NCBI RefSeq assembly: GCF_044324875.1
Contig: NZ_CP172185.1
Strand: one strand, 5' to 3'
DNA length: 64,000 nt
From: Escherichia coli
GTDB taxonomy: Bacteria > Pseudomonadota > Gammaproteobacteria > Enterobacterales > Enterobacteriaceae
Below the pieces are notes generated by a model that did no database searches, was not told the origin of the DNA, and worked only from the letters and a program-made list of their open reading frames with translations. Positions 30,181 to 38,175 of the stretch are shown here, piece after piece. Each line of letters begins with the position of its first letter. Position 1 is the first letter of the stretch. The position numbers and the translations under genes are program-made.

Positions 30181-31023
30181 CTATACTGCCAGCATGTCAG
30201 GATAGTGTCTGACGATAATATCATTCAGTCTGTCAACCAGTTCCGGTTTCCTGAACGTGATATGCGCGGAGCCTTTCCTGAAGTATCTGATGCTGAACAT
30301 CTCATCCTCATAGCATGCTTCACCCTGAACGGACCGGATGTGCTCATCCAGACGAATGAGGATATTGTCCCGGTCAGTGGGTATGGGTTTACCGCTGAAC
30401 AGATACAGTATCCTTTCCAGGTCGGCAAGCCGCCCGGCCTGCGGACCATGGTTCAGACCAAATCCCCACCAGTCCCATTTCACCAGGTTGTTGAGGATAA
30501 TCTTACTGCCGAATTTACAGGGTGACCCGCTGTTGTGCGTCCGGCTCAGTCCTCTGAAGAGGTTGATGACGCCCCGTTCAGCCATTTCATCCCTGTTACG
30601 GTGCAGTTGTTCAGACGTACTCAGGATATTCGCTTCGCTGATTTCCGGAAAATTATCCTCCTCCAGTGAACGGTACCATTCATCACGCGCCTGTGCATCC
30701 ATCAGACTCAGCATCCCGGAGCGTTGCATCAGGTCACGCCAGATTTCACGGTCAAGGTTCCGGGTGATGGCTTTCATTGCGGTTTCCGGTTTTTCCATCA
30801 GCCAGCAGCCACAGCGAAAATCCTGTTTCACGGCCCAGTCCCGGGCCGTTTTACCTCCGATGCTTTCTGTCATTACTGAGATTTCTGCCAGTTGCCGGAT
30901 AAGCCTTTCGGTTTGTTGCAGTGCTTCATTCCGTACCGTCACAACGTGCCGGATACTGGTTGAGCAGATAACGTCCGTATGTCCGTTAAGCGTTTCCGGA
31001 CGGGAGACTGTGATATCAGACAT
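30181..31023 (-). CDS. conserved island hypothetical protein, 280 aa (possibly DUF4942-type; family not confirmed)
   Basis: Long ORF MSDITVSRPETLNGHTDVICSTSIRHVVTVRNEALQQTERLIRQ... at the tRNA-proximal edge of the island. Confidence 0.55.
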   Translation of the reverse strand: MSDITVSRPETLNGHTDVICSTSIRHVVTVRNEALQQTERLIRQLAEISVMTESIGGKTARDWAVKQDFRCGCWLMEKPETAMKAITRNLDREIWRDLMQRSGMLSLMDAQARDEWYRSLEEDNFPEISEANILSTSEQLHRNRDEMAERGVINLFRGLSRTHNSGSPCKFGSKIILNNLVKWDWWGFGLNHGPQAGRLADLERILYLFSGKPIPTDRDNILIRLDEHIRSVQGEACYEDEMFSIRYFRKGSAHITFRKPELVDRLNDIIVRHYPDMLAV

Positions 31024-31119
31024 AACCGATATTCCTTTTTGCAGATAAATGAAAACGCCAGCCGTATTCGGACTGGCGTCAGTGGAATGAATCGTGGTGA
31101 GTGAGATGATGAGTGAGAC

Positions 31120-31317
31120 TCACAGGTTCTGGTGCTGAAGCTGCAGCTGGCGCAGGGTGCGGATATCCTCCCTGGCCTGTTCGATACAGGGCAACAGTGC
31201 TGCCGAATCCGTTTTATCCTCATCGTTGTCGAAGATAATGCAGGAGCCGCAGTCGATATTGTCCTGCAGCCACGCAATCAGAATATCCGGTGCTGTTTCT
31301 GTGGTTAATGATTTCAT
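31120..31317 (-). CDS. small hypothetical protein (65 aa)
   Basis: C-terminal in-frame part (MKSLTTETAPDILIAWLQDNIDCGSCIIFDNDEDKTD...) of ORF 31120-31704, directly downstream of the yeeW-like gene; no clear SD. Confidence 0.3.
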   Translation of the reverse strand: MKSLTTETAPDILIAWLQDNIDCGSCIIFDNDEDKTDSAALLPCIEQAREDIRTLRQLQLQHQNL

Positions 31318-31336
31318 ACGGTGTCTTTTGTCCCGG

Positions 31337-31825
31337 TTACCAGTCGAAAGTGGGAAAACCCGGCAGACATTCAGCGCCGGCATCCAGATGAATGAGACTG
31401 ACGCCATAACGCCGGATGAGAGTGACAACCAGACGACGAAACGTTTTTGACAGACCCAGGCGTTTAAGCCGCAGAGCCGGGTACGACCACGCATCAGTAC
31501 GTAACAGATATCCGCTGCCTGTAAAATGAATCCATTCTGATTCGCCGTTGTCATTCGTCTGATGCGACAGCGAGTACAGCCAGGCATTGTCCTGCTCCGT
31601 GATATGTGCGGTACTGCAGCGTATGCCGGTAAGGGCCGCAAATGGTGGCATGCAGTCTGCTGAGGTCCGGTCAGATTCATCAGCAACACGAAGGGAACAG
31701 CCATTATCGCAGACCACGTTAATCAGTTCAGCGAGATTAACACCATCGACGTCAGCGACAATGCGCCCCATGTTCAGTGCCTGTACGTTAACGCTGTCGG
31801 CTTCCAGTGTCAGGGACAGTTTCAT
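31337..31825 (-). CDS. YeeW-like protein (162 aa)
   Basis: [31 protein letters not shown]...; start overlaps cbtA stop (ATGA); position equals yeeW in CP4-44-type modules. Confidence 0.5.
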
Positions 31826-32199
31826 GGTTTCACCTCACAGTGTTTACCCAGGGTGATGTTGTTCACCATTCTGTAGTGGCTGCGGGTCATCAGGCCGGTC
31901 GCCCGGCGGGCCCGGAGAATATCAATGCTGCTGATTAACTGCGATGAAGCTCCTGCGCTGAATCCCGGCTGGTCGGTACGCACCAGCGCGTATTTTTCCA
32001 CAAGAAAGTTCACCGCATCACACAGTGAAATACCCGCCTCAATATGCTGCTCAATCACACGTTCATCGGCGAACGGTGTGTCATTCAGCGTGAGGCCGTA
32101 GTGCTGGTCCAGCAGCCGGGTGAGCAGTGTCTGCCAGATTTCAACCGGAGACGGGCAGCGCGATGTTGCCCGTACGTGTGTGTCGGGGAATGTTTTCAT
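31822..32199 (-). CDS. cbtA: CbtA/YeeV-family toxin (cytoskeleton-binding toxin)
   Basis: ORF 31822-32325; internal start [56 protein letters not shown]... closely resembles YeeV. Confidence 0.85.
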
Positions 32200-32257
32200 C
32201 TTAAGTACTCTGTAACAGGTGATGATAAAGAAGTGCTGTCCGGGGTTATGCGGTGGT

Positions 32258-32623
32258 TCAGGGTGTTGCCGGTGTCGGATAAATGGCGATATACACGTAA
32301 CCACAACTGCCGAGGGTGTCGGCATCGCAGGTCAGCCCTTTCGCATACAGTGTCACGGTATGCTGATGGCGGGGACTGAGTTCACCGCTGGTGAGCATGA
32401 GTTCCAGCTGTTTCATCAGCAGCGGAAAGGCCTGGTCCAGGTGGTACGCATCTGCGTCGCTGAACCGGCCTCTGATACCGGCGCGGTCTGCAAGGTAATG
32501 CAGGCGGTTACCCTCCTGCACCAGACGGGCACCGAAACAGGGCGTCACGGTGCAGGGCAGCCCCCACCAGGGGCGGTCGCTGTTGTCGTCAGGATGCGTT
32601 GTCCCGGTGAGTGTGTCTGACAT
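32258..32623 (-). CDS. cbeA: CbeA/YeeU-family antitoxin
   Basis: 121-aa [53 protein letters not shown]... closely resembles YeeU. Confidence 0.85.
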
Positions 32624-32673
32624 GATAAAGTCCTCACTGATAATCGGTTAAGAATGGTTTTAACAATGACGGG

Positions 32674-33318
32674 TCAGCCGGCGCGCAGACCGGCTTCGGT
32701 GAAGGTGTATCCGTTGATGAGAAGGGCCTCATCCACGGCGTCGTCTGAGGTCAGCCAGTCGTACTCGTTTTCCAGTTGACTGTATAACCAGAAGGCAAGG
32801 TCCCGCAGGGCGTCACAGACAACGGTTTCCGCGCTGGCTGTCATTGCCTGTCCGGTCGGACTGTCCCGGGTGACGGTGATATCCATGCTGTACGGATGGC
32901 AGTAGTGTCCCCGGTGGCGGATTTCAGCCTGAAGCTGCCGGAAGTTACGCTTCTGCACCGCCTGCAGGGCATCCGCGATACGATGAAGCTCACGGTCCTG
33001 CGGGGCATATTCCCTGATTTTCCGGGGTGCCGCTGGCTGCCAGCGCCAGCGTCCTTCAAAACAGGCTCCGTCCCCCTGGCTGCAGAATCCGCTGAACCAG
33101 ATGCACGGCTCTTCCATAAACCTGCCGTTGCTGAGCCGGATAACACGCTGGCGGAGGGCAATCCCGACAATCTCACAGACCGTCCTGAAGTCCTCATACA
33201 CGTTTTCATACCAGTTGCTGTCAGCATGATGCTGACGGTACCATTCACGGGCCTTCTCCCGTGCTGTGGCGGAAAGTTCATCCGGCGTATACACGGTGGT
33301 GATGATAATTCTGCTCAT
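32674..33318 (-). CDS. hypothetical protein (about 214 aa) between yeeT-like and cbeA
   Basis: ORF 32674-33330; ATG at 33318 (MSRIIITTVYTPDELSATAREKAREWYRQHH...) with GGAG 6 nt upstream; protein-like composition, overlapping alternative-frame ORFs look non-coding. Confidence 0.55.
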   Translation of the reverse strand: MSRIIITTVYTPDELSATAREKAREWYRQHHADSNWYENVYEDFRTVCEIVGIALRQRVIRLSNGRFMEEPCIWFSGFCSQGDGACFEGRWRWQPAAPRKIREYAPQDRELHRIADALQAVQKRNFRQLQAEIRHRGHYCHPYSMDITVTRDSPTGQAMTASAETVVCDALRDLAFWLYSQLENEYDWLTSDDAVDEALLINGYTFTEAGLRAG

Positions 33319-33334
33319 CCGCATCTCCACTGAC

Positions 33335-33556
33335 TCAGTTCAGGGTGACGCTCATCAGCCGGACATACGGGCCAAAACTGTCCTTCCGGCGTTCGGCAAA
33401 CACGGCAAGCACACCGGGGATATCCTGCACTTCACGACCGGTATACGCTTCAGCACTGCCGTGCCAGCGGTATTTACCGGTACAGAACGGAAAAAGACGG
33501 GATGACGGATACTGACGGTGAACGCGCATGGCTTCACCACGGGTGATGATTTTCAT
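33335..33556 (-). CDS. yeeT: YeeT-like protein (DUF987)
   Basis: 73-aa ORF MKIITRGEAMRVHRQYPSSRLFPFCTGKYRWHGSAEAYTGREVQDIPGVLAVFAERRKD... Confidence 0.8.
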   Translation of the reverse strand: MKIITRGEAMRVHRQYPSSRLFPFCTGKYRWHGSAEAYTGREVQDIPGVLAVFAERRKDSFGPYVRLMSVTLN

Positions 33557-33645
33557 GAGAACAGTCCTCCTGAATGTGAAAGTGAGAAACAGCTGAGAAA
33601 GAGAAACTGAAGTGACAATATGAAGGTGGCTGTGACGGTGACGGA

Positions 33646-34122
33646 TTAAAGCAGACCGTGTTCCGCAAAGGAGAACACCCGGCTGCCACCGACTATCAAA
33701 TGGTCCGGTACCCGGATATCCACCAGGGCCAGTGCCTGTACCAGACGTTCAGTGATAAGGCGGTCTGCCTTACCGGGTGTGACCTCACCGGACGGATGAT
33801 TGTGCGCCAGCACCACGGCAGCGGCATTGTGGTACAGGGCGCGTTTAACCACCTCCCGGGGATGCACTTCCGTGCGGTTGATGGTGCCGGTGAAGAGGGT
33901 TTCACCGGCAATCAGCTGATTCTGGTTGTTCAGGTACAGCACCCGGAACTCTTCCCGCTCCAGTCCCGCCATGTGCAGAATCAGCCATTCCCGTGCCGCA
34001 TGCGTGGAGGTGAAGGCCACGCCGGGTTCATGAAGATGGCGGTCCAGGGTTTTCAGGGCCCGCTGAATGAGGCTGCGCTCGCCGGGCGTCATCGCGCCGG
34101 GCAGAAAGGAAATCTGTTGCAT
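33646..34122 (-). CDS. RadC-like JAB-domain protein (YeeS/YkfG/YfjY family)
   Basis: ORF 33646-34164 with JAMM-like motif HNHPSGEVTPGKADRLITERL. Confidence 0.85.
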   Translation of the reverse strand: MQQISFLPGAMTPGERSLIQRALKTLDRHLHEPGVAFTSTHAAREWLILHMAGLEREEFRVLYLNNQNQLIAGETLFTGTINRTEVHPREVVKRALYHNAAAVVLAHNHPSGEVTPGKADRLITERLVQALALVDIRVPDHLIVGGSRVFSFAEHGLL

Positions 34123-34133
34123 AACCTCACTCC

Positions 34134-34607
34134 TCAGTCGATGATGCGCATAATGGCGCTGCATTCCGGATGCTGCAGGGCGTAATCCCGCAGCCGGTAA
34201 TAATGGACCGTCATGGCATAATGCTCCGTACGGCAGGCGTGATGACTGTAGGCCATCAGGCAGGCGGCAATGCCGGCGGCTTCAGGGCTCATTTCCGCGC
34301 GGTTGCCGTTCATGGTGTTAAACAGTGCCCATGTTTCGTCATCATCGTCACCCGGTTCGGGAGCCATAAATGCGCCGCCGTTGTTCAGGGTGTACATATT
34401 CCAGATACCCCCACTGTAGTCTTCACACAGACGGTCCATCCAGCCGAAGATTCGGGGCTCAAGGGTCACCCACTGCGGAATGAGGCCAAAGTGCTGCGGC
34501 CAGAAGCTGATGCGCTGTTCGTCAGGCACTGGGCTGGCAACCAGCTGAGGTGGATTATTCCCGGATGCAGTGGTTGCGGAAACAGAGTCATGCGAAACCG
34601 TTTTCAT
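34134..34607 (-). CDS. antirestriction protein (YfjX/YafX, KlcA/ArdB-like family)
   Basis: ORF 34134-34709; family-conserved part starts at ATG 34607 (MKTVSHDSVSATTASG...); tail ...HHACRTEHYAMTVHYYRLRDYALQHPECSAIMRIID; upstream ORF extension runs into IS21 DNA. Confidence 0.8.
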   Translation of the reverse strand: MKTVSHDSVSATTASGNNPPQLVASPVPDEQRISFWPQHFGLIPQWVTLEPRIFGWMDRLCEDYSGGIWNMYTLNNGGAFMAPEPGDDDDETWALFNTMNGNRAEMSPEAAGIAACLMAYSHHACRTEHYAMTVHYYRLRDYALQHPECSAIMRIID

Positions 34608-34825
34608 AAGTGAAATCCTTAAGTGCAAAATGGCATCTGAATCGATCGCAGTTTGGCATTCGAATCGATCATGATTTGGCATCCATCTCCGATCACAGTT
34701 TGGCATCACAATCGATCACGATTTGGCATGCTTCCGATCATTGATTGGCATCCTGCCAGTCACTCCGGGAATTAACTCTTTTCACCACAGTCTCCATTGC
34801 CGTGTTTAAACCAGTGGAGACGTCA

Positions 34826-36391
34826 ATGTCCAGAAAGAGAAAATCCAGGAGCACTATGGAAACCTGTTTTAAGATCCTTCAGCTCAAGTTCGACAAGAAG
34901 CTGACTAACCGTTGTATCGGACTGACGTTACACATCAGCGCCTCAACCGTTTTTGAGGTTCTTGCCCGCTTCAAAGCCTCTTCTCTGTCATGGCCATTAC
35001 CTGCTGATATATCCCATGACACGCTGGAGAAACTCATTTTTCCGCCCAAAGACACCTTTGCATCAGAGCTTGTAATGCCTGACATGTTGTACTTCGATAC
35101 GGAAATGAGAAAACCAGGTGTGACGCGGCAACTGTTGTGGATGGAATACAAGGCACAGGCGGGTAACAAAGCGATGGGATACTCGCACTTCTGCCGTTGC
35201 TACCGGGAGTGGAAAAAAACGCGACGTCTCTCCATGCGCCAGGAGCATCGTGCCGGCGAAAAGCTTTTTATCGACTTCTGTGGTCCTACGGTTCCTGTTA
35301 TTAATCCGGACACCGGTGAGATACGCCGCGTGGCAATCTTCGTGGCCGTAATGGGGGCGTCCAACTATACCTACGTTGAAGCGTGCGAAGGTCAGGACAT
35401 GATGTCATGGTTAAATGCCCACAGCCGTTGCCTGACCTTCCTGGGCGGCGTACCGAAGCTGCTCATCCCCGATAACCTCAGAAGCGCAGTGAAAAAGGCC
35501 GATCGATATGAGCCTGTCATCAACGACAGTTATCAGGCACTGGCTGAGCACTATGGCACGGTTATCATCCCGGCCCGACCACGCAAACCTAAAGATAAAC
35601 CAAAAGCAGAAAACGGCGTCCTCATCGTTGAACGATGGCTTCTTGCCCGCATCCGTAATGAAACCTTCCACACGCTCAGGGCGCTGAATGCGCGCCTTAG
35701 GGAGTTACTGACAGACATGAATAACCGGCCAATGAAGGGGTACGGCAATCAAACCCGTGCAGAACGCTTCCGCATACTGGATGCGCCAGCACTCTCTCCG
35801 CTGCCTCTGGCACCTTATGAATACACGGAATACAAAGCTGTGAAGGTTGGCCCTGACTACCACGTTGAATATGCCCGTCACTGGTACTCCGTTCCACACG
35901 AACTGGTCGGTCAGCGTCTGTCACTGAAGGCGGGGCAGTCGGTGGTACAGCTCTGGCACAAGGGGCAGTGTGTGGCGCAACATCCGCGCAGCACACATGA
36001 ATATAAACACACAACCAATCCGCTTCACATGCCAGAGCGCCACCGGCAGCACGGGACATGGACACCGGAACGCCTGATCGAGCAGGGAAAACGTACGGGC
36101 CCGTCCACAGGCCGGGTGGTTGAATCCATGCTGAAGGCAAAACCCCATCCGGAACTGGCTTATCGTGCAGTTCTGGGGCTGCTGGCACTTCAGAAAAAAT
36201 ACGGCCCGGAACGGCTGGAAAAGGCCTGTTACGTTGCCCTGCACTATAACGCCCCTGACAGACGCTTTATCGACAATCTGCTGCGTCACCATCGGGAGAA
36301 CCTGGAGCTTCCATTATCCCGCCAGGGCGAACAACATCCGGCATATGCTTCAGAGCATGAAAACCTGCGTGGTCCGGGCTACTACCACTGA
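34826..36391 (+). CDS. istA: IS21-family transposase IstA
   Basis: Internal ATG of ORF 34745-36391 (MSRKRKSRSTMETCFKILQLKFDKK...) preceded by GGAGA; HTH plus DDE integrase core. Confidence 0.85.
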   Translation: MSRKRKSRSTMETCFKILQLKFDKKLTNRCIGLTLHISASTVFEVLARFKASSLSWPLPADISHDTLEKLIFPPKDTFASELVMPDMLYFDTEMRKPGVTRQLLWMEYKAQAGNKAMGYSHFCRCYREWKKTRRLSMRQEHRAGEKLFIDFCGPTVPVINPDTGEIRRVAIFVAVMGASNYTYVEACEGQDMMSWLNAHSRCLTFLGGVPKLLIPDNLRSAVKKADRYEPVINDSYQALAEHYGTVIIPARPRKPKDKPKAENGVLIVERWLLARIRNETFHTLRALNARLRELLTDMNNRPMKGYGNQTRAERFRILDAPALSPLPLAPYEYTEYKAVKVGPDYHVEYARHWYSVPHELVGQRLSLKAGQSVVQLWHKGQCVAQHPRSTHEYKHTTNPLHMPERHRQHGTWTPERLIEQGKRTGPSTGRVVESMLKAKPHPELAYRAVLGLLALQKKYGPERLEKACYVALHYNAPDRRFIDNLLRHHRENLELPLSRQGEQHPAYASEHENLRGPGYYH

Positions 36392-36407
36392 CAGAAGGAA
36401 CAACAGT

Positions 36408-37163
36408 ATGAGTGATAACCTGTTAAACAAACTGACCCAACTGAAACTCCCGGCGATGGCCGGGAGCCTGATACGGCAGCGGGAAACGCCTCAGACCTAC
36501 GACGAACTGTCGTTCGAGGAAAGGCTGACGCTGCTGGTTGATGACGAGCTTCTGAGCAGGGAAAACAGCCGTGTGGCACGGTTGAGAAAAAATGCCGGCC
36601 TGAAATACCAGGCAACACCGGAAGGGCTGCGCTATCCGGCCTCAAGAGGTCTGCGGGCTGAACAGATGAGAGAACTGCTGAACGGCCACTACATAACCCA
36701 CAGGAAAAACCTGCTGATAACCGGTCCGACAGGATGTGGCAAGAGCTGGATAGCCAATGCGCTGGGCGAACAGGCATGTCGACAGAAACACAGCGTCCGG
36801 TACTGTAGAACCGGGCGATTACTGGAACAACTGGCTCAGGGACGTGTTGATGGCAGCTGGCTGAAATATCTGAAACAGTTGCAAAAAATACAGGTTCTAA
36901 TCCTGGACGATCTGGGGCTGGAACAGTTAAGTAACGCCCAGTGTAATGACCTTCTGGAGCTCATAGAGGATCGTTACGGACAAAGCAGCACGATAGTGGT
37001 AAGCCAGTTCCCGGTAGATAAATGGCATGGTCTGATGGAGAACCCAACAACAGCAGATGCCATCCTGGACAGACTGGTACATAACTCACACCGAGTGGTC
37101 CTTCAGGGAGAGTCACTGAGGAAAAATCCCCCGGTAGTGGAAAGCAGCGAAAAAACGCGTTAA
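36408..37163 (+). CDS. istB: IS21-family helper ATPase IstB
   Basis: Internal ATG of ORF 36165-37163 (MSDNLLNKLTQLKLPAMAG...); Walker A GPTGCGKS. Confidence 0.85.
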   Translation: MSDNLLNKLTQLKLPAMAGSLIRQRETPQTYDELSFEERLTLLVDDELLSRENSRVARLRKNAGLKYQATPEGLRYPASRGLRAEQMRELLNGHYITHRKNLLITGPTGCGKSWIANALGEQACRQKHSVRYCRTGRLLEQLAQGRVDGSWLKYLKQLQKIQVLILDDLGLEQLSNAQCNDLLELIEDRYGQSSTIVVSQFPVDKWHGLMENPTTADAILDRLVHNSHRVVLQGESLRKNPPVVESSEKTR

Positions 37164-37262
37164 AAAGCGGTAGAAAAAGTTAAGTTCCCGGTTGATCGAA
37201 TGGATGCGAATCGCTGATCGGACTTCGATGCCAATCCGTGATCGAATAGAGCGGAATACGCA

Positions 37263-37330
37263 CTTAAGTGAATAAGTGAACAAGTGAATTAAGGAAATAA
37301 GTGAATGAATAAGTGAATAAGAGAGAAAAG
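37263..37330. repeat. tandem array of 8-bp AAGTGAAT-like units
   Basis: cttaagtgaataagtgaacaagtgaattaaggaaataagtgaatgaataagtgaataag; one more unit (aagtgaaat) lies on the other side of the IS21 element at 34609-34617. Confidence 0.7.
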
Positions 37331-37356: not shown

Positions 37357-38175
37357 TCAGCGCAGGCTCTCCAGCAGCGTTTCCGTCATCACCCACAATG
37401 CGCGGTTGAGCTTAATGTCGGTGTCAATGCTGTGAATGGCCCGGGTGTGGATACGTTTTCCTTTTGCACTGCGCCCCTGAAGACCACCCTTGAGCATATT
37501 CTCCTGGATGGTCTGATAAGCACTCCACAGGTCCTTACCGTAATCCTCCCGGCGTCGTGGCGTCAGAATGTCAGCGGTGGTGACGGGCTGATGTTCGTCA
37601 CCATAACGGTAAGTCAGGGCGGCCTGTGCCAGCGCTTGGCGAGCCGGTGGTGGTAAAATCAGCGACTGCATGGCATCACGCTTCTCCTCAATCCGGTCAA
37701 AAACCCCCACCACTTCGTAAGCCCCTTCGATGACCCTGTCCACCACGTTTCCCCGGTGTGGCACACGCACCTCTCCGAGAGACTGACCGCAGACGCACCC
37801 GTTCTGACACACGAACCGGAAGTAACCCGGCAGCATCTGGTAGCTGGAGGTACCGTCATGGGAGTTGAGCAGAATGATTTCCGGGACATGCTGCCCGTTT
37901 ATCTCCCCGTCACGGCGCAGACGCAGCATGTGCTTTGTGTATCCCCGACGTCCCGGGTCCCGCACGCGGGTCTGGCAGGCAAAGAAGGGCTGAAAGCCTT
38001 CCCGCTGCAGGCTTTCCAGCACGGTAATGGTGGGGATGTATGTATAGTTCCGGCTCCGGGAGGTGTGCTTATCTTCCCCGAAAATCCCGGGCACATGGTG
38101 CATCAGTTCTTCATGTGTCAGCGGACGGTCACGGCGTATCTGGTTCGCATAACCAAAACGACTGGCTAATCGCAT
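37357..38175 (-). CDS. DUF932/UPF0380 family protein (YfjQ/YafZ-like)
   Basis: 272-aa ORF MRLASRFGYANQIRRDRPLTHEELMHHVPGIFGEDKHTSRSRNYTYIPTITVLESLQREGFQPFF... Confidence 0.7.
   Translation of the reverse strand: MRLASRFGYANQIRRDRPLTHEELMHHVPGIFGEDKHTSRSRNYTYIPTITVLESLQREGFQPFFACQTRVRDPGRRGYTKHMLRLRRDGEINGQHVPEIILLNSHDGTSSYQMLPGYFRFVCQNGCVCGQSLGEVRVPHRGNVVDRVIEGAYEVVGVFDRIEEKRDAMQSLILPPPARQALAQAALTYRYGDEHQPVTTADILTPRRREDYGKDLWSAYQTIQENMLKGGLQGRSAKGKRIHTRAIHSIDTDIKLNRALWVMTETLLESLR

Follow-up and report, generated by a model that had tools for sequence, protein, structure and literature searches.

A full-length DUF5983 gene overlapping the toxin gene cbtA in a CP4-type genomic island of Escherichia coli

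Introduction

In a stretch of 64,000 nucleotides (nt) of Escherichia coli DNA (contig NZ_CP172185.1 of assembly GCF_044324875.1; hereafter the window), the gene for a CbtA-family toxin is directly followed by a full-length gene of the DUF5983 family, the start codon of which overlaps the toxin stop codon, and then by a small gene for a protein of 65 amino acids (aa). A conserved operon on the minus strand, within a CP4-type genomic island beside a tRNA-Ser gene (serX), appears to have its 3′ end in this region. The operon would run from antirestriction, RadC, DUF987 and DUF8835 genes through cbeA, cbtA, DUF5983 and the 65-aa gene, DUF957, to an intrinsic terminator. Ribosomes finishing cbtA would re-initiate at the start codon of DUF5983, or be recruited there; any translation of cbtA would then yield DUF5983 as well, in a proportionate amount. 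DUF957 would use an ATG of its own, located a few nucleotides downstream. Genomic context shows that DUF5983 is not specific to the toxin; the family of its C-terminal domain (C-domain) is characteristic of the end of the leading region that lies proximal to the transfer origin (oriT) of conjugative and mobilizable plasmids. Since it occurs there without cbtA and cbeA, the island operon is best read as a chromosomal copy of an early-entry “establishment / anti-defence” gene set in which the CbeA/CbtA pair is embedded. The C-domain might act soon after the element enters a cell, as a DNA-binding regulator or an establishment factor and not as an antitoxin. For this explanation as a whole, we estimate a probability of about 0.55.

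The cbtA/DUF5983 junction

Coordinates are those of the window, and genes lie on its minus strand unless stated otherwise. The cbtA-family toxin gene (31822-32199, 125 aa) matches Pfam CbtA_toxin with an E value of 1.6e-59. Upstream of it lies a type IV antitoxin gene of the cbeA/YeeU family (32258-32623, 121 aa; Pfam CbeA_antitoxin, E 1.1e-54), and the identical sequence in NZ_AP045773.1 is annotated by NCBI as YeeU family antitoxin. The two genes have the arrangement of a CbtA/CbeA pair, on the same strand with the antitoxin first and a gap of 58 nt. The DUF5983-family gene (YeeW-like, Aec77; 31337-31825) encodes a full-length protein of 162 aa which matches both Pfam models of the family, PF25638 and PF19419.

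A sequence-only reading of this stretch had claimed that the toxin stop and the YeeW-like start overlap, implying translational coupling. The overlap is real, as read directly from the sequence: TCAT on the plus strand at 31822-31825 gives ATGA on the minus strand, in which the cbtA stop (31824-31822) and the DUF5983 start (31825-31823) fall, and TGA and ATG have three bases in common. A Shine-Dalgarno-like GAGGTG lies within the 3′ end of cbtA (31836-31831), 5 nt before the DUF5983 ATG. The putative coupling has the expected signature, namely the overlap, the internal Shine-Dalgarno and conservation across genera, and to this extent it is supported. In well-known ATGA-coupled pairs such as trpB-trpA, the downstream start likewise overlaps the stop of the upstream gene, which also contains the Shine-Dalgarno. 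They differ from the present case in that the coupling of DUF5983 to cbtA is putative and that no mRNA structure occluding its start is predicted.

The 4-nt ATGA is the commonest type of same-strand gene overlap in bacteria. It is the conservation of the cbtA/DUF5983 overlap, rather than the overlap itself, that counts. A scan for related loci, limited to one genome per species, returned 31 loci (these and other compared loci are numbered with L below). A full-length DUF5983 gene directly follows cbtA in 18 loci, from about ten enterobacterial genera. The overlap is retained at 15 of these 18 junctions and is 4 nt long, once 1 nt. It takes the form of ATGA, TTGA or GTGA, and the loci concerned belong to Escherichia, Mixta, Tenebrionibacter, Citrobacter, Winslowiella, Erwinia, Cedecea and Rouxiella; the start codon is TTG in Winslowiella, Erwinia and Rouxiella, and GTG in Cedecea. 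A purine-rich GGAGG, GAGG or GGGG stands at the matching place in other loci. The overlap persists from protein identities of 84-89% down to about 57%, despite the changes of start codon among ATG, TTG and GTG. An ATGA overlap is also found in Phytobacter (L026), where the gene encodes the C-domain only.

Conservation of the block and its end

The four-gene block cbeA-cbtA-DUF5983-DUF957 is common in the species. A match was found in 4960 of 5426 complete E. coli genomes, and at least 80% of the block is present at one place in 3612 of the 5426, with a median of three places per genome; the search gave 14057 places in E. coli. In the sampled genomes, the four genes are annotated as YeeU family antitoxin, CbtA family toxin, DUF5983 family protein and DUF957 domain-containing protein. 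The segment 31100-32640 of the window is 100% identical to that of E. coli strain 23CRST013. Protein searches gave 1058 clusters of DUF5983 homologues, the majority with lengths of 162-163 aa; among the best 120, about 108 fall within 159-166 aa. For the 65-aa protein there are 332 clusters, mostly of 65 aa. The ratio of nonsynonymous to synonymous substitution rates (dN/dS), taken from comparisons with unsaturated dS, lies at 0.23-0.30 in DUF5983 and at 0.19-0.31 in the 65-aa gene; cbtA (0.18-0.22) and cbeA (0.17-0.23) have similar values. All four genes are real, conserved, protein-coding and under purifying selection, and full-length DUF5983 is the usual form in E. coli, not a peculiarity of the window. 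The YeeW-like ORF is conserved, and most homologues have it in frame; the opposite findings would have spoken against the sequence-only reading.

The small open reading frame (ORF) noted after the YeeW-like gene is present as well. It lies at 31317-31120 (ORF and NCBI annotation), 19 nt past the DUF5983 stop, and is called DUF957 by NCBI and Aec78 elsewhere. Its name comes from NCBI annotation; no Pfam model matches the 65-aa protein, even at E <= 5. In the compared loci its own ATG is always present, 11-30 nt past the DUF5983 stop, and a purine-rich element usually precedes it. A recent preprint describes AntiFam entry ANF00264 as a neighbour of DUF5983 and cbtA/cbeA with a confident homodimer fold, and proposes a genuine protein, possibly linked to DUF5983 through programmed frameshifting (bioRxiv 10.64898/2026.06.09.728211). 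From its position, ANF00264 is very probably the 65-aa gene.

An intrinsic terminator follows at 31044-31080, with a GC-rich stem of 10 bp (hairpin 31080-31054) and the U tract UUUUCAUUU. Its folding energy has a z score of -3.2, and none of 200 shuffled sequences folds as well. The hairpin is kept in other genera with compensatory changes, e.g., CCAGCC/GGCTGG vs CCATCC/GGATGG. Because this terminator comes after the 65-aa gene, the transcription unit is taken to end there. In loci outside Escherichia (spacers of L007-L021), a TATATAAAGGA motif conserved across genera follows the hairpin. The spacer between DUF957 and DUF4942 is longer in L011-L017 (172-184 nt), and at least two of these loci hold decayed remnants of DUF957. 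Copies of the locus resembling those of Escherichia or Citrobacter also occur in assemblies assigned to Collinsella, Lachnospiraceae and Chryseobacterium (L003-L006, L011, L013 and L018); they are almost certainly contamination or mis-binning.

Comparison with K-12

The closest familiar relative of the block is cbeA-cbtA-yeeW of CP4-44 in E. coli K-12. The gene order and the 4-nt overlap between cbtA and yeeW are the same, and CbeA and CbtA are 91% and 83% identical, respectively. The two loci differ in that K-12 yeeW is a remnant of 64 aa, whereas the window has, like most E. coli, intact DUF5983 and DUF957 genes, and also an additional gene for a 218-aa protein. By tblastn, only residues 5-55, part of the N-terminal domain, are left in K-12 yeeW. 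A deletion, which removed the DUF5983 C-domain together with the first half of DUF957, has brought this remnant up against the C-terminal half of the latter gene. The statement in the sequence-only reading that K-12 yeeW is short and probably truncated was correct in this respect. The C-terminal half of DUF957 in K-12 (L001, 4169-4255) lies in an unannotated gap between yeeW and yoeD/yoeF (region 2078134-2078931), so that these K-12 “genes” are in part leftovers of the deletion behind the truncated yeeW. Downstream of ypjF and ykfI of K-12, no trace of DUF5983 or DUF957 was found.

Most of what is known of these toxins was learned from the K-12 homologues. CbtA, YkfI and YpjF of K-12 are all toxic, and each is neutralised by its antitoxin; their operons are not autoregulated, either by toxin or by antitoxin (PMC5371832). 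Inhibition of FtsZ and MreB by the toxin, and its counteraction by the antitoxin, have also been shown for the K-12 homologues (PMC5624674; PMC5371832). Since neither K-12 product regulates its own operon, the role of a regulator appears vacant.

DUF5983 on plasmids

Homologues of the DUF5983 C-domain, searched by tblastn with a stand-alone member as query, occur in 248 plasmids, of which 118 are mobilizable and 91 conjugative; their hosts include Serratia, Enterobacter, Klebsiella, Yersinia, Citrobacter and others. The contexts of eleven such genes were inspected. In all 11, oriT-side genes are found 1-4 genes away from the C-domain gene, i.e., SLT and traM in F-like plasmids, and mobA/nikA or the relaxase gene in MOBP plasmids. 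The C-domain gene has the same orientation as psiB, psiA, antirestriction and methyltransferase genes wherever these are nearby, and it often adjoins DUF932. A cbtA or cbeA gene was found near none of the 11. A twelfth context, with DUF932 and repA nearby and no transfer genes, was left out of the count. Plasmid neighbours of C-domain genes are thus antirestriction genes, methyltransferase genes (N6_Mtase or DUF4942), DUF932 and sometimes DUF957.

The same association has been recorded in a systematic study of leading regions (Samuel et al., Nature 2024). Its family 72, described as [quoted passage not shown], has 618 members and is enriched in the leading region with a false discovery rate p of 6.6e-199, at a median position of 2 from oriT and on strand 1 (PMC11541004 Suppl. 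file 3). Other leading-region families in that study are DUF4942/YdiA (families 24 and 76), DUF932/YubP (3), DUF905 (2) and KlcA-type antirestriction proteins (9) (PMC11541004). Homologues of all of these, DUF5983 included, are present in the island of the window. The island differs from plasmid leading regions in being chromosomal and abutting a tRNA gene; its antirestriction gene is separated from DUF5983 by RadC/DUF987 and a CbeA/CbtA pair, and its DUF5983 protein has an additional N-terminal domain, absent from the plasmid forms.

Gene order in other lineages is also variable. In Yersinia ruckeri (L027, 836-5029), the order is DUF932, antirestriction, RadC, the gene for the C-domain of DUF5983 (DUF5983C), cbtA, cbeA and DUF4942. 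The same order, with the toxin before the antitoxin and the DUF5983C start overlapping the end of RadC, is seen in L025, L029 and L030. In Leminorella grimontii (L024, 2134-4273), RadC is followed by cbeA, DUF5983C and DUF4942, and there is no cbtA; the antitoxin homologue is an orphan, and the candidate start of DUF5983C overlaps the cbeA stop by 4 nt. In Klebsiella oxytoca “plasmid 4” (L041, NZ_LR890315.1, 4970-6497), cbtA is broken into two unannotated tblastn pieces, whereas cbeA, DUF5983 and DUF957 are intact. This record is a 29-kb “plasmid” with E. coli-like island and kps capsule genes. The position of DUF5983 relative to the toxin gene is not fixed.

The DUF5983 protein

The protein consists of two domains. 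DUF5983_N (PF25638) covers aa 4-59 (31649-31816) with an E value of 1.5e-29, and the C-domain (PF19419) covers aa 69-162 (31340-31621) with 2.1e-22; their scores of 101.8 and 79.7 bits, respectively, both pass gathering cut-offs of 27. They define a small family (217 clusters at 50% identity), of which the C-domain is the conserved part: H74 and D79 are nearly invariant, followed by a G124-x-S126 turn and a terminal W, and K121, G124, S126 and R130 are invariant in the family alignment A2. This domain also occurs alone (about 100 aa, on plasmids and in a few phages) or, in proteins of about 188 aa, after another N-terminal region. Comparison of island DUF5983_N with the N-terminal region of these 188-aa plasmid variants by hhalign gave a probability of 0.9%, and their homology is unsupported. 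AlphaFold2 models DUF5983 with a mean predicted local distance difference test score (pLDDT) of 84.8, ranging over 87-98 in the C-domain and 73-82 in the N-terminal domain. The predicted order of elements is beta-alpha-beta-beta-alpha-alpha-beta for the C-domain and beta-beta-alpha for DUF5983_N. Predicted helices at aa 116-122 and 127-140 flank the invariant G-x-S turn, and the most conserved stretch of DUF5983 spans both.

Searches for a function gave little. No meaningful match to a solved structure was obtained with the DUF5983 profile or the 65-aa protein, and the predicted DUF5983 fold matches none. No known DNA-binding domain of the helix-turn-helix or winged-helix type matches DUF5983 significantly in sequence or structure; in a Pfam search at E <= 10 over 36 DUF5983 members, only the two DUF5983 models recur, and no helix-turn-helix model appears. 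A homologue search with the C-domain profile brought no informative protein names. Neither DUF5983 nor the 65-aa protein is matched by PADLOC models, which describe defence rather than anti-defence. In the literature mentioning DUF5983 or DUF957, no function is reported for either, so that the sequence-only reading was justified in calling the downstream genes of CbtA-type toxins poorly characterised. The helix-turn-helix-like stretch at aa 116-140 (31406-31480) may be a DNA-binding motif, a weak suggestion from the predicted helices whose sole outside support is the HHpred note “transcriptional regulator” (PMC11541004 Suppl. file 3). A small DNA-binding regulator, or else another kind of establishment factor, is our leading, if weak, guess at what the C-domain is.

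Alternative explanations

Several observations weigh against a coupled operon of leading-region ancestry. First, three of the 18 junctions have a 13-nt spacer containing GGAG in place of the overlap. Second, mRNA structure masking the DUF5983 start was not found beyond chance (folding z -0.44), and because the junction mRNA is not unusually structured, DUF5983 could initiate independently from its own Shine-Dalgarno. Third, no relaxase gene was noticed beside the block in the inspected part of the window, where the search was not systematic and did not extend to oriT. From this, “leading region” describes the homologues and the ancestry of the block, not the locus in the window. Finally, DUF5983_N is seen only in genes directly following cbtA, which could reflect either a toxin-related role of this subfamily or one shared ancestor.

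One alternative would make DUF5983 a true third component of the CbtA/CbeA system, acting as second antitoxin, as chaperone or as operon regulator and dosed with the toxin through coupling. Three-component toxin-antitoxin operons with a separate regulator, such as omega-epsilon-zeta and PaaR-PaaA-ParE, also have a third small gene in the operon of a toxin-antitoxin pair. DUF5983 differs from them in that its regulator role is only putative, that it is dispensable for toxin-antitoxin function in K-12, and that its family is mostly found without CbtA. In favor of a third component, the overlap of the DUF5983 start with the toxin stop shows tight conservation from genus to genus, and DUF5983_N is confined to genes after cbtA. 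An in-silico survey of toxin-antitoxin systems lists DUF5983 as a “partner” always downstream of CbtA_toxin (PMC10790755). The K-12 operons, in which yeeW is truncated, are not autoregulated and would leave a place for a regulator (PMC5371832), and the HHpred note cited above would suit one. Indeed, DUF5983 appears to share an operon with the toxin gene, as judged from the overlap and the single terminator after DUF957, and it adjoins that gene in 18 loci. It does not accompany the toxin wherever it is found, as plasmids and Leminorella demonstrate. The C-domain is present in 248 plasmids and lacks cbtA/cbeA in the contexts inspected, its position relative to the toxin varies in Yersinia and Leminorella, and the Klebsiella record combines a broken cbtA with intact DUF5983 and DUF957. 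Furthermore, the K-12 pairs function without DUF5983 (PMC5371832). Thus, the two downstream genes do not qualify as dedicated partners of the toxin, as the sequence-only reading had implied, and a third component seems unlikely to us.

A direct complex of CbtA and DUF5983 was also considered. The two proteins were co-folded as a fusion with a 30-residue linker, from a shallow alignment of 15 paired and 20 unpaired rows and with no interface read-out. The predicted template modelling score (pTM) was 0.38 and the mean pLDDT 67, and the N-terminal domain of DUF5983 lost confidence. This weak test gives no support to a complex.

Another possibility is that the overlap reflects ordinary operon compaction, and that DUF5983 and DUF957 are independently initiating passengers whose adjacency to the toxin is a historical accident. 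The frequency of ATGA overlaps in bacteria, a Shine-Dalgarno good enough for independent initiation, the unmasked start, the three loci with a spacer and the shuffling of the gene set in other lineages would all agree with it. What compaction explains poorly is that the overlap outlasts both changes of the start codon (ATG, TTG or GTG) and a fall of protein identity to about 57%; TTG and GTG placed on a stop codon would presumably be weak initiators without a ribosome arriving from upstream. Compaction by itself is therefore a doubtful account of the junction.

It has also been proposed that DUF5983 and the 65-aa region form one protein through programmed ribosomal frameshifting (bioRxiv 10.64898/2026.06.09.728211). 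Some database entries are indeed fusions matching both DUF5983 and ANF00264. In the window, the frame of the 65-aa gene is open for 129 further codons upstream, overlapping DUF5983 in another frame and giving an ORF of 194 aa (31120-31704). Other genera do not share this open frame, which is probably there by chance and may account for database gene calls that are over-long or “fused”. The relative frame of DUF5983 and DUF957 varies among loci (0, +1 and +2), as does their spacer of 11-30 nt, and the 65-aa gene keeps its own ATG in all of the compared loci. In addition, the two genes are separated on a Citrobacter plasmid, several lineages have a decayed DUF957 next to an intact DUF5983, and frame-hopping database proteins such as P0366 resemble sequencing errors. 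The variable relative frame largely refutes a programmed frameshift, which we regard as highly improbable. The notion that the two ORFs, of 162 and 65 aa, are spurious or in decay, as the K-12 yeeW remnant, the listing of ANF00264 as spurious by AntiFam and the lack of a Pfam model for DUF957 might suggest, is refuted by dN/dS of 0.2-0.3 for both genes, lengths conserved over hundreds of clusters, a confident AlphaFold2 model of DUF5983 and conservation of both across genera and on plasmids, and has next to no probability left.

Surroundings of the block

Upstream of cbeA, the window contains the antirestriction gene (34134-34709), the RadC gene (33646-34164) and the DUF987 gene (33335-33556), each recognized by a Pfam match and NCBI annotation. 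Between DUF987 and cbeA lies the gene for the 218-aa protein (32674-33330), for which NCBI gives the name “DUF8835”, with a typo in the product name of the record. This protein has no match in a Pfam search and matches phrog_5162, and its gene is not found in CP4-44 of K-12. These four genes probably share an operon with the cbeA-cbtA block. A scan for the operon promoter scored no better than shuffled sequence. An IS21-family element (34745-37263, plus strand) is inserted between the antirestriction gene and a DUF932 gene (37357-38175, minus strand). It carries istA (34745-36391, with rve and Mu-transposase C-terminal domains) and istB (36165-37163, IstB_IS21). Strain 23CRST013, identical to the window over 31100-32640, is without this insertion at the site. 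The element may separate the operon from an upstream promoter.

Beyond the terminator lies the DUF4942 gene (30181-31023; Pfam DUF4942, E 1.5e-60), which encodes a YdiA-like putative methyltransferase. It has an AAGGA Shine-Dalgarno of its own, and among PHROG families its product matches one with the annotation DNA methyltransferase. The island then abuts tRNA-Ser(GGA) (29941-30028), which is identified as serX because ghrA, ycdX and csg genes are found beyond it. A search of 29500-35000 against Rfam found only the tRNA. It is the DUF4942 end of the island that meets serX, and no integrase gene adjoins this tRNA gene. CP4-6 of K-12, at thrW, has a like layout, with the toxin end toward the tRNA.

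Implications

The arrangement described here is already known and annotated, by NCBI, in a toxin-antitoxin survey (PMC10790755), in a 2026 preprint (bioRxiv 10.64898/2026.06.09.728211) and in the supplement of PMC11541004. It is also routine, being found nearly whole in roughly two thirds of the complete E. coli genomes. Work on CbtA and CbeA has been done almost entirely in K-12, which is without the two intact downstream genes. As a tentative extension that we consider rather improbable in its full form, DUF5983 would be a new early-entry regulator or anti-defence factor with a fold unlike solved structures, tied to CbtA in CP4 islands by its N-terminal domain and the coupling, where it would supply the control element that K-12 lost by deletion. 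The residual value of the finding is that of a pointer: homologues of the downstream genes are among the first to enter the recipient in plasmid conjugation.

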